From: Octopus vulgaris
Taxonomy: Eukaryota
DNA length: 64,000 nt
Assembly (NCBI GenBank): GCA_951406725.2
Contig: OX597823.1
Coordinates: 107,818,001-107,882,000 of the forward strand
Direction of reading: 5' to 3'
Numbering within the stretch: the first letter of the stretch is position 1; each line of letters opens with the position of its first letter. Position numbers and translations under genes: made by a program. A model generated the notes under the pieces. It had not been told where the DNA came from. It ran no database searches and was given only the letters and a program-made list of their open reading frames with translations. Below are positions 59,587 through 60,150 of the stretch, piece by piece.

Positions 59587-60150
59587 ATCGTGAAGTATAT
59601 TTGCCACTTAAATGTAGCTAACCCCTAAGGGTGGATGCTACTGTAGCATGAAGCCCTAGGAGGACATCTCCTCCAGCTGGCTATTGACACACTTTCTGTG
59701 CCCTAACAATATTTGCAAAGGGAAGCCATCTTTCCCGTCTACACACGGACTCGAGTTTCTGGGTATTGACCCGTCATCAGCGGGCGACAATCACTAGTTG
59801 TCGATGAAAAGTAGGCCTCCCCTTACAAATGTATATCCTTTTTCCAGTGACGAAAAGTCACTGATATCGAAAAAATGTAAACAAACAATTATAAATCTCT
59901 GAGCGAGGTATAGACAGTAGCTATAGAGTCCGTGTGTATCATAGGTTGAAAACGGGAAAGATGACTTCCATTTGCAAATACTGATAGCGCACAGAAAGTG
60001 TGTCAATAACCAGCTGGAGGAGATGTCCTCCTAGGGCTACAAGCTACAGTAGCATCCAACCTTAGGGGTTAGCCACATTTAAGTGGCAAATATACTTCAC
60101 GATGTGTTACAGCTACTGTCTATACCTCGCTCAGAGATTTACTATTGCTT
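59587..60150. mobile_element. Retrozyme-like repeat family B: minus-strand unit (59587-59925) joined head-to-head to a plus-strand partial unit (59926-60150)
   Basis: Long inverted repeat; circularly permuted ~355-nt monomer; hammerhead on the minus strand; (TA)n flanks. Confidence 0.8.
59741..59785 (-). ncRNA. Minimal type I hammerhead ribozyme
   Basis: Minus strand: cccg-CTGATGA-c gggt caat accc a-GAAA-C tcga G-TC-cgtgtg, with palindromic stem III actcgagt. Confidence 0.75.

Follow-up and report, generated by a model that had tools for sequence, protein, structure and literature searches.

The segment at 59587-60148 of the window, i.e. the whole 64,000-nt stretch of Octopus vulgaris DNA that was analysed, is confirmed as one insertion in which two arms of a 355-nt repeat stand back to back; the repeat, which carries a type I hammerhead motif, belongs to subfamily B. 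In all likelihood the segment represents an old, protein-free hammerhead repeat of ~355 nt, probably a non-LTR retrozyme, pasted into (TA)n by the enzyme of a Penelope-like element (PLE). The features on which this reading is built are the following.

59587-59923, minus strand: minus arm, a B unit that is nearly complete, from tail start to 3' end site 1
59926-60103, plus strand: plus arm, running to site 1 and 5'-truncated 5 nt upstream of the cleavage site
60104-60148, plus strand: "tail" extension of ~45 nt, reaching 3' end site 2, with (TA)n beyond it
59548-59588, no strand assigned: (TA)n microsatellite at the left junction, the presumed target
59742-59786, minus strand: type I hammerhead, from sequence and subfamily comparison
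59711-59830, minus strand: long closing stem, 59830-59815 with 59726-59711, capping the hammerhead rod
59637-59921, minus strand: tail stem, 59921-59914 pairing with 59644-59637
63386-63946, plus strand: comparison copy of family A, a 360-nt partial tandem ending in (TA)n

The two arms lie in divergent orientation (minus 59923 to 59587, plus 59926 to 60148) and form an inverted repeat of 157 nt with 92% complementarity. The minus arm, whose site 1 end adjoins a (TA)n run, differs from the B majority by 18 substitutions and a 12-nt deletion that takes out the 3' strand of distal stem I, and the plus arm lacks the hammerhead core owing to its 5' truncation. Three non-majority bases are common to the two arms, where 0.3 would be expected, and 11 of 166 positions differ between them. 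The tail extension is found on the plus arm only, as described for PLE insertions, which comprise an inverted 5'-truncated copy and a 30-40-bp tail at one end only (10.1101/2021.04.23.441226; PMC8557442). With the junction taken from a natural copy, the B unit measures 355 nt, in agreement with the monomer of about that length reconstructed in the sequence-only reading; the motifs named there are likewise all in place, with the GGAGGA hairpin at 60016(+) and 59674(-) and the GCCAC hairpin at 60072(+). GUC followed by CGUGUGUA occurs at 59928(+), 59750(-), 63403 and 63763, the last two being the cleavage-site motifs of the family A copy, which represents a young subfamily of the same clade. A short 3' fragment of family A is also embedded in (TA)n at 53633-53745 of the window, which is rich in microsatellites. 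Only short stop-to-stop frames of 45-78 aa overlap the B unit, and among the frames of the window none combining reverse transcriptase (RT) and GIY-YIG lies within or next to the insertion. No tRNA gene was found in the window and no tRNA-like part in the repeat.

On the minus strand, the core CUGANGA/GAAA/NUH with stems I-III and an open-ended stem I is present at 59786-59742. Stem I is formed by 59786-59781 with 59747-59742, with one C.U mismatch in the window copy; the core boxes are CUGAUGA at 59780-59774 and GAAA at 59759-59756; stem II spans 59772-59761, and stem III is short and palindromic. Cleavage is predicted from the motif to occur after GUC, between 59748 and 59747(-). Of the copies compared, 19 of 23 in B and 34 of 35 in A have an intact hammerhead core. 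No Rfam hammerhead model scores the region or family A, the Rfam list for the whole window being microsatellite noise. The hammerhead consensus has a purine-pyrimidine pair at 10.1-11.1, the base of stem II. This pair is absent from B: the opposition is C.A in B and E and U.U in D, and G-C in A and C. At the same alignment columns (158 and 171), C.A is also seen in the minor groups F and G, and the canonical pair is found in the two youngest subfamilies, A and C, which are those most often in tandem. A mismatch at the base of stem II also occurs in axolotl HHR_Amex2, as U.U like that of D, and a natural U.U stem II variant is described as still cleaving as a dimer (PMC7229834).

The clade was delineated in the 2.8-Gb genome (227 contigs), where the strict hammerhead pattern gave 1,703 matches vs one for the reversed control and the exact B core gave 61. 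First-look candidates numbered 1,692 for the B hammerhead region (40 scored) and 1,296 for family A. The 140 repeat loci fetched, 139 of them with matches, reduce to 107 places once overlapping stretches are merged, and were picked for likeness to the window or an intact core, which biases them to well-preserved copies. Segmental duplicates were counted separately; L076/L081 and L019/L020, for instance, show the same insertion structure at different places and are probably segmental duplications, not separate insertions. At least five subfamilies (A-E) and minor groups were distinguished, the clusters of 77 full units being 58-83% alike with a stray single-member cluster (52-72%) left out. Identity between A and B is 59% along the full unit and rises to 79% in a 67-nt stretch around the tail; their alignability therefore extends beyond the hammerhead core, as the sequence-only reading had supposed. 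Units diverge from the majority of their subfamily by a mean of 1.2% in C (11 units), 1.4% in A (35), 3.3% in D (7), 4.6% in E (3) and 5.2% in B (23); clusters of one or two, with 17 of the 96 units, were left out of these figures. In a tree of 25 units, the branch leading to A is long (0.49), and no order is resolved among the B copies, which radiate as a star.

Subfamily B is old. Its arms differ by 8.2% in 20 B-assigned insertions vs 1.9% in ten A insertions, from which B would be about four times older than A, and same-strand hammerhead pairs in tandem are found in 0 of 59 B loci. At least two head-to-tail hammerheads are present in 27 of 37 A, 10 of 14 C and 2 of 5 D loci (overlapping stretches unmerged). 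Sister subfamilies form pure tandems of 352-360 nt; B occurs as single units or partial tandems and is probably an extinct branch as a mobile element. Since B arms reach 501 nt, i.e. more than one unit, and many of them run through the cleavage site, the template appears to have been either a multimer left uncut or a ligated circle.

The insertion footprint is regular. Among 163 outer 3' ends, 67 fall at site 1, 66 at site 2 (~45 nt further) and 30 elsewhere. In 42 of 56 inverted insertions there is one end per site and in none is the same site used twice, the remaining 14 having at least one unclassified end; the rule of one arm per site holds for 42/42 classifiable inverted insertions, and the window insertion conforms to it. 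The junctions carry (TA)3 at 47 of 67 site 1 and 44 of 66 site 2 ends (91/133), vs 10.5% at random positions. Non-majority bases common to both arms number 59 vs 8.7 expected in the 20 B-assigned insertions, a figure inflated by a few rows that belong to other subfamilies; such arm-common variants fit a single template variant for both arms. The back-to-back insertions suggest a Penelope-type enzyme as the inserter. The anole PLE protein, a predicted dimer, is described as cutting both strands of AT-rich DNA and as starting reverse transcription at two internal sites that bound the tail, hammerhead cleavage being dispensable in vitro (PMC11167929). Arms with a 5' end at the cleavage site were considered as a mark of cleaved templates and discarded, as they amount to 5 of 141 with no enrichment, in a count biased by the selection of loci for carrying a hammerhead.

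The repeat is predicted to be highly structured. For the minus arm, the folding energy is -111.6 kcal/mol (z -5.4), a stability reached by 0 of 100 shuffles, and the predicted circular folds give z values from -3.3 to -8.3 in 8/8 units tested. The tail stem, in which one C-G pair is U-A in A and E, closes a small domain with 3' end site 1 in the fold predicted for a circle or multimer. A, D and E also have the closing stem, in a different sequence, and C keeps it weakly. The 16/16 pairing of this stem, put forward in the sequence-only reading, is correct by inspection of the strands starting at 59830(-) and 59726(-), with three GU pairs; two of these three (C101T, A104G) are changes of the window copy away from the B majority, and are thus signs of decay and not of selection. 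The hairpin of A that had been equated with GGAGGA does lie in the same region, but is slid by ~2 nt in an alignment built from sequence only.

Conservation between subfamilies was assessed in two ways. In the duplex test, the best duplex between homologous segments was scored for 12 B helices and compared with 1,000 simulated neutral sets without indels. The summed stability value of the 12 helices lies below those of all 1,000 neutral sets in every comparison (z -4.3 for D, -4.1 for C, -4.5 for E and -6.1 for A); the closing stem in A scores -26.3 vs -12.4 kcal/mol, and two B helices (inner P2 and the CCC hairpin) are not kept in A. In the double-sided-change test, with 90 pairs predicted from B alone and 5,000 null draws, five kept changes are found vs D (null 0.33) and five vs C (null 0.53), reached in 0/5,000 draws each, five vs E (null 1.77; 114/5,000) and 11 vs A (null 5.6; 52/5,000). 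Three results point in the opposite direction. With the B fold as reference, 51 pairs are changed in A, and 32 of these are broken in an alignment built from sequence only; with A's own predicted fold as reference, no compensatory excess is seen vs any subfamily (6 vs 4.9 against B); and the ratio of kept to changed pairs between vs within subfamilies is not significantly different (49/106 vs 76/211, p 0.09). At 59% identity the helices have slid, which keeps strict covariation between A and B modest.

Among 25 units aligned by sequence alone, 22 of 68 named pairs show double-sided changes with 90.5% of cells paired, a count that 0/500 shuffles reach and for which slid controls give 4-10 pairs, and which is inflated by the relatedness of the units and by the derivation of the structure from the same sequences. 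One of the five measures, "further pair types", is not significant (288/500 shuffles). RNAalifold misses the closing stem on this alignment because the 5' strand is misaligned between subfamilies; the stem was left out of the 68-pair count and tested separately by duplex scoring.

Individual copies behave differently from subfamilies. The same duplex test on 14 of the 23 B copies gives a mean z of +0.37, and divergence in the 23 copies is 5.6% (224/4008) at paired vs 4.8% (181/3770) at unpaired sites. The sequence-only reading had proposed selection on RNA structure in a diversified clade "rather than a decayed repeat". Its first part stands, as helices are kept between subfamilies beyond neutral expectation in a clade of at least five subfamilies. 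The second does not, given that B copies diverge equally at paired and unpaired sites, and the window copy itself shows decay in the 12-nt deletion and the stem I mismatch. Taking into account the retention between subfamilies together with the absence of constraint on copies, the constraint is placed on the source or transposing RNAs and not on the genomic copies, so that "structured clade" and "decayed repeat" are both true.

Among known systems, the closest resemblance is to the metazoan non-LTR retrozymes. These are described as type I hammerhead repeats of 170-400 nt in tandem, with circular RNAs expressed in coral, mussel and axolotl, and PLEs have been proposed to mobilise them (PMC7229834). 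In both, a protein-free unit of the same length class (350-390 bp in mussel, 330/350 bp in axolotl) carries a type I hammerhead whose helix III is short and palindromic, copies run to thousands, both dispersed and in tandem, the predicted fold is highly paired, and PLEs co-occur; the likeness is one of genomic features. The clade has the genomic characters of a retrozyme, i.e. a non-coding repeat of ~150-450 bp (B 355 nt) with a type I hammerhead, no LTR, many copies and a highly self-paired predicted fold. Taken by itself, B departs from the tandem rule, as it consists of monomers and partial tandems and not of hammerhead dimers. Inverted arms with two fixed (TA)n ends, as seen here, are not described in PMC7229834. 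Its main text contains no cephalopod case (the supplement may mention some), and a search outside subscription journals, Repbase and Dfam returned no paper on cephalopod hammerhead repeats. The sequence-only reading was thus borne out as regards clade and structure, and had missed both the known class and the Penelope-type footprint.

A preprint (Li, Clavereau and Pollet 2026; 10.64898/2026.07.22.740005) presents animal retrozymes as non-autonomous PLE derivatives that stem from PLE pseudo-LTRs (pLTRs). It likewise describes non-autonomous hammerhead repeats beside PLEs, in families ranging from all-monomer to multimer. Its link is based on pLTR homology and co-occurrence, mainly in vertebrates, whereas that of the octopus repeat is the insertion footprint, without detectable pLTR homology in the sampled PLEs. 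B also falls outside its definition of an "active" family, for which two consecutive complete hammerheads are needed. With PLEs themselves (PMC8557442; PMC11167929) the repeat has in common the one-end tail, two RT starts, inverted arms, AT-rich or (TA)n targets and a hammerhead inside the repeat; it differs in having no ORF and a tail of ~45 nt instead of 30-40 nt. The insertion marks of a PLE-mobilised sequence are present, namely the one-end tail, two 3' sites, an inverted 5'-truncated arm and a microsatellite target; homology to the pLTR of an autonomous PLE was not detected in the 36 top GIY-YIG stretches.

The GIY-YIG search of the genome gave 148 matches, many in 781-aa frames. One PLE copy with RT and GIY-YIG domains and a CX4CX2C linker lies between 504-nt direct repeats, and this linker is reported to mark the Neptune and Nematis clades (PMC8557442).

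L144:744-5990, contig C6 near 133.35 Mb, also L141-L146: young intact Neptune/Nematis-type PLE, from frames and pLTRs

In this PLE family a 479-aa upstream frame overlaps the 781-aa RT-GIY-YIG frame, the pLTRs are 504 nt long, and many copies are intact. In 23 of the 36 stretches, the PLE 3' region carries a minimal U3-A8 hammerhead, of a kind that PMC4209133 describes; the hammerhead of the PLE pLTR is of the minimal type, that of B a type I with full canonical core and extended stem I. PLE ends fall at two sites 40 nt apart (19 and 8 of 32 rows, two places being counted twice), nearly all followed by (TA)n, so that target and two-end geometry are common to PLE and repeat. Apart from two independent insertions, no sequence shared by the repeat and the 36 PLE stretches, i.e. 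the best-scoring GIY-YIG hits only, was found by blastn, nhmmer or a tail-only profile. By analogy of footprint, a PLE partner can be proposed at the level of class. An 11-nt motif near the repeat 3' end that matches a PLE pLTR at 10/11 was rejected, in view of its different spacing and a rough chance near 0.1.

The same footprint could also be explained if B were the pLTR of an autonomous PLE, its copies being 5'-truncated PLE insertions with no separate non-autonomous RNA. Tail, inversion and (TA)n are the same as in PLEs, B occurs as single units or partial tandems, PLE pLTRs carry hammerheads (PMC4209133), and the preprint derives retrozymes from pLTRs (10.64898/2026.07.22.740005). This explanation is nevertheless unlikely, because copies extending past the unit start continue into another unit or the inverted arm, the sister subfamilies are pure tandems, the unit is found at the end of 0/36 GIY-YIG stretches (best-scoring PLEs only), and the PLE's own hammerhead differs in type.

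The conserved fold can be accounted for in other terms as well. Selection for a host function, or for viroid-like RNA-to-RNA replication, could maintain it, as the fold of the whole unit persists across 0.5 changes per site in the tree and retrozyme circles are described as abundant in mussel and axolotl (PMC7229834); yet genomic copies are unconstrained, the subfamily ages (1.2-5.2% from the majority) resemble successive transposition bursts, and no second-polarity ribozyme was noticed in an unsystematic look, which makes this very improbable. That a satellite or SINE-like repeat was spread by DNA-level mechanisms or by a LINE, the common fold being residual ancestry, is scarcely credible: tandem arrays do exist and strict A-B column covariation is weak, but helix retention exceeds the neutral simulations in four comparisons, the repeat is devoid of a tRNA-like part, and the pairing of site 1 with site 2 in all classifiable insertions would be unexpected from LINE priming or unequal crossover.

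For a retrozyme mobilised by a PLE enzyme, the following course of events may be proposed. A tandem source locus would be transcribed, and hammerheads, probably acting as dimers in view of the short palindromic stem III, would cut out monomers that a host ligase circularises. A PLE RT-endonuclease would then cut both (TA)n strands and prime the two arms on a single uncut template (circle or multimer), one from each of sites 1 and 2, after which the 5'-truncated arms would be joined back to back. Source RNAs that had lost the fold would have left few copies, which would explain the compensatory change between subfamilies, and inserted copies would afterwards mutate neutrally. Assembled contigs on the stretch (85-99% identity; three runs guessed to be RNA, one of unknown kind) were set aside as possible DNA or intronic read-through, such contigs being unable to show RNA ends, strand or circles.

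More tentatively, and with considerable doubt, a deep clade of circular ribozyme RNAs might be recognised by a Neptune-type PLE enzyme through shape and not sequence. The covarying tail stem and neighbouring hairpins would then place the two RT starts, one per subunit of a dimeric enzyme, with no pLTR homology remaining. If so, the succession E, B, D, C, A would constitute a natural mutational map of the template needs of a PLE, and a counter-example to retrozymes as simply recent pLTR offshoots.

The retrozyme class has been published before, as has the PLE hypothesis, and the window locus is a dead copy. The present data extend non-LTR retrozymes to the octopus genome and add genomic evidence for their proposed, unproven mobilisation by PLEs. 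Their contribution is the old subfamily B and a test that separates constraint on source RNAs from neutral decay of copies, two things that are often mixed. Furthermore, the conserved helices and the two fixed ends provide exact substrates for the existing in vitro PLE assay.

A-to-I editing fixed in the copies was considered and rejected for B, where A>G and T>C changes are nearly equal in number (34 vs 35); A>G is slightly in excess in A (17 vs 6) and in D (10 vs 4), and no copy is hyper-edited. In L078, the 16 differences seen in one arm correspond to an internal rearrangement, not editing: at L078:1996-2189, a subfamily C insertion, one arm contains an internal inverted segment, as from a template switch within the long stem.

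Other repeats are present in the window. A stretch of ~525 bp at 58925-59450, with 38-nt inverted repeats (97% complementary), lies between (CA)n and (TG)n, and contains a short minus-strand frame that we take to resemble a reverse-transcriptase fragment. Broken minus-strand frames at 62400-63050, just upstream of family A, presumably resemble the C-terminal part of a LINE reverse transcriptase. Two further dispersed repeat families of 200-400 bp are SINE-like, several copies being in inverted pairs.

1020-1880, 7244-7627, 12924-13155, 18045-18355, 20099-20512, 53896-54332 and 57262-57489 of the window: other dispersed repeats
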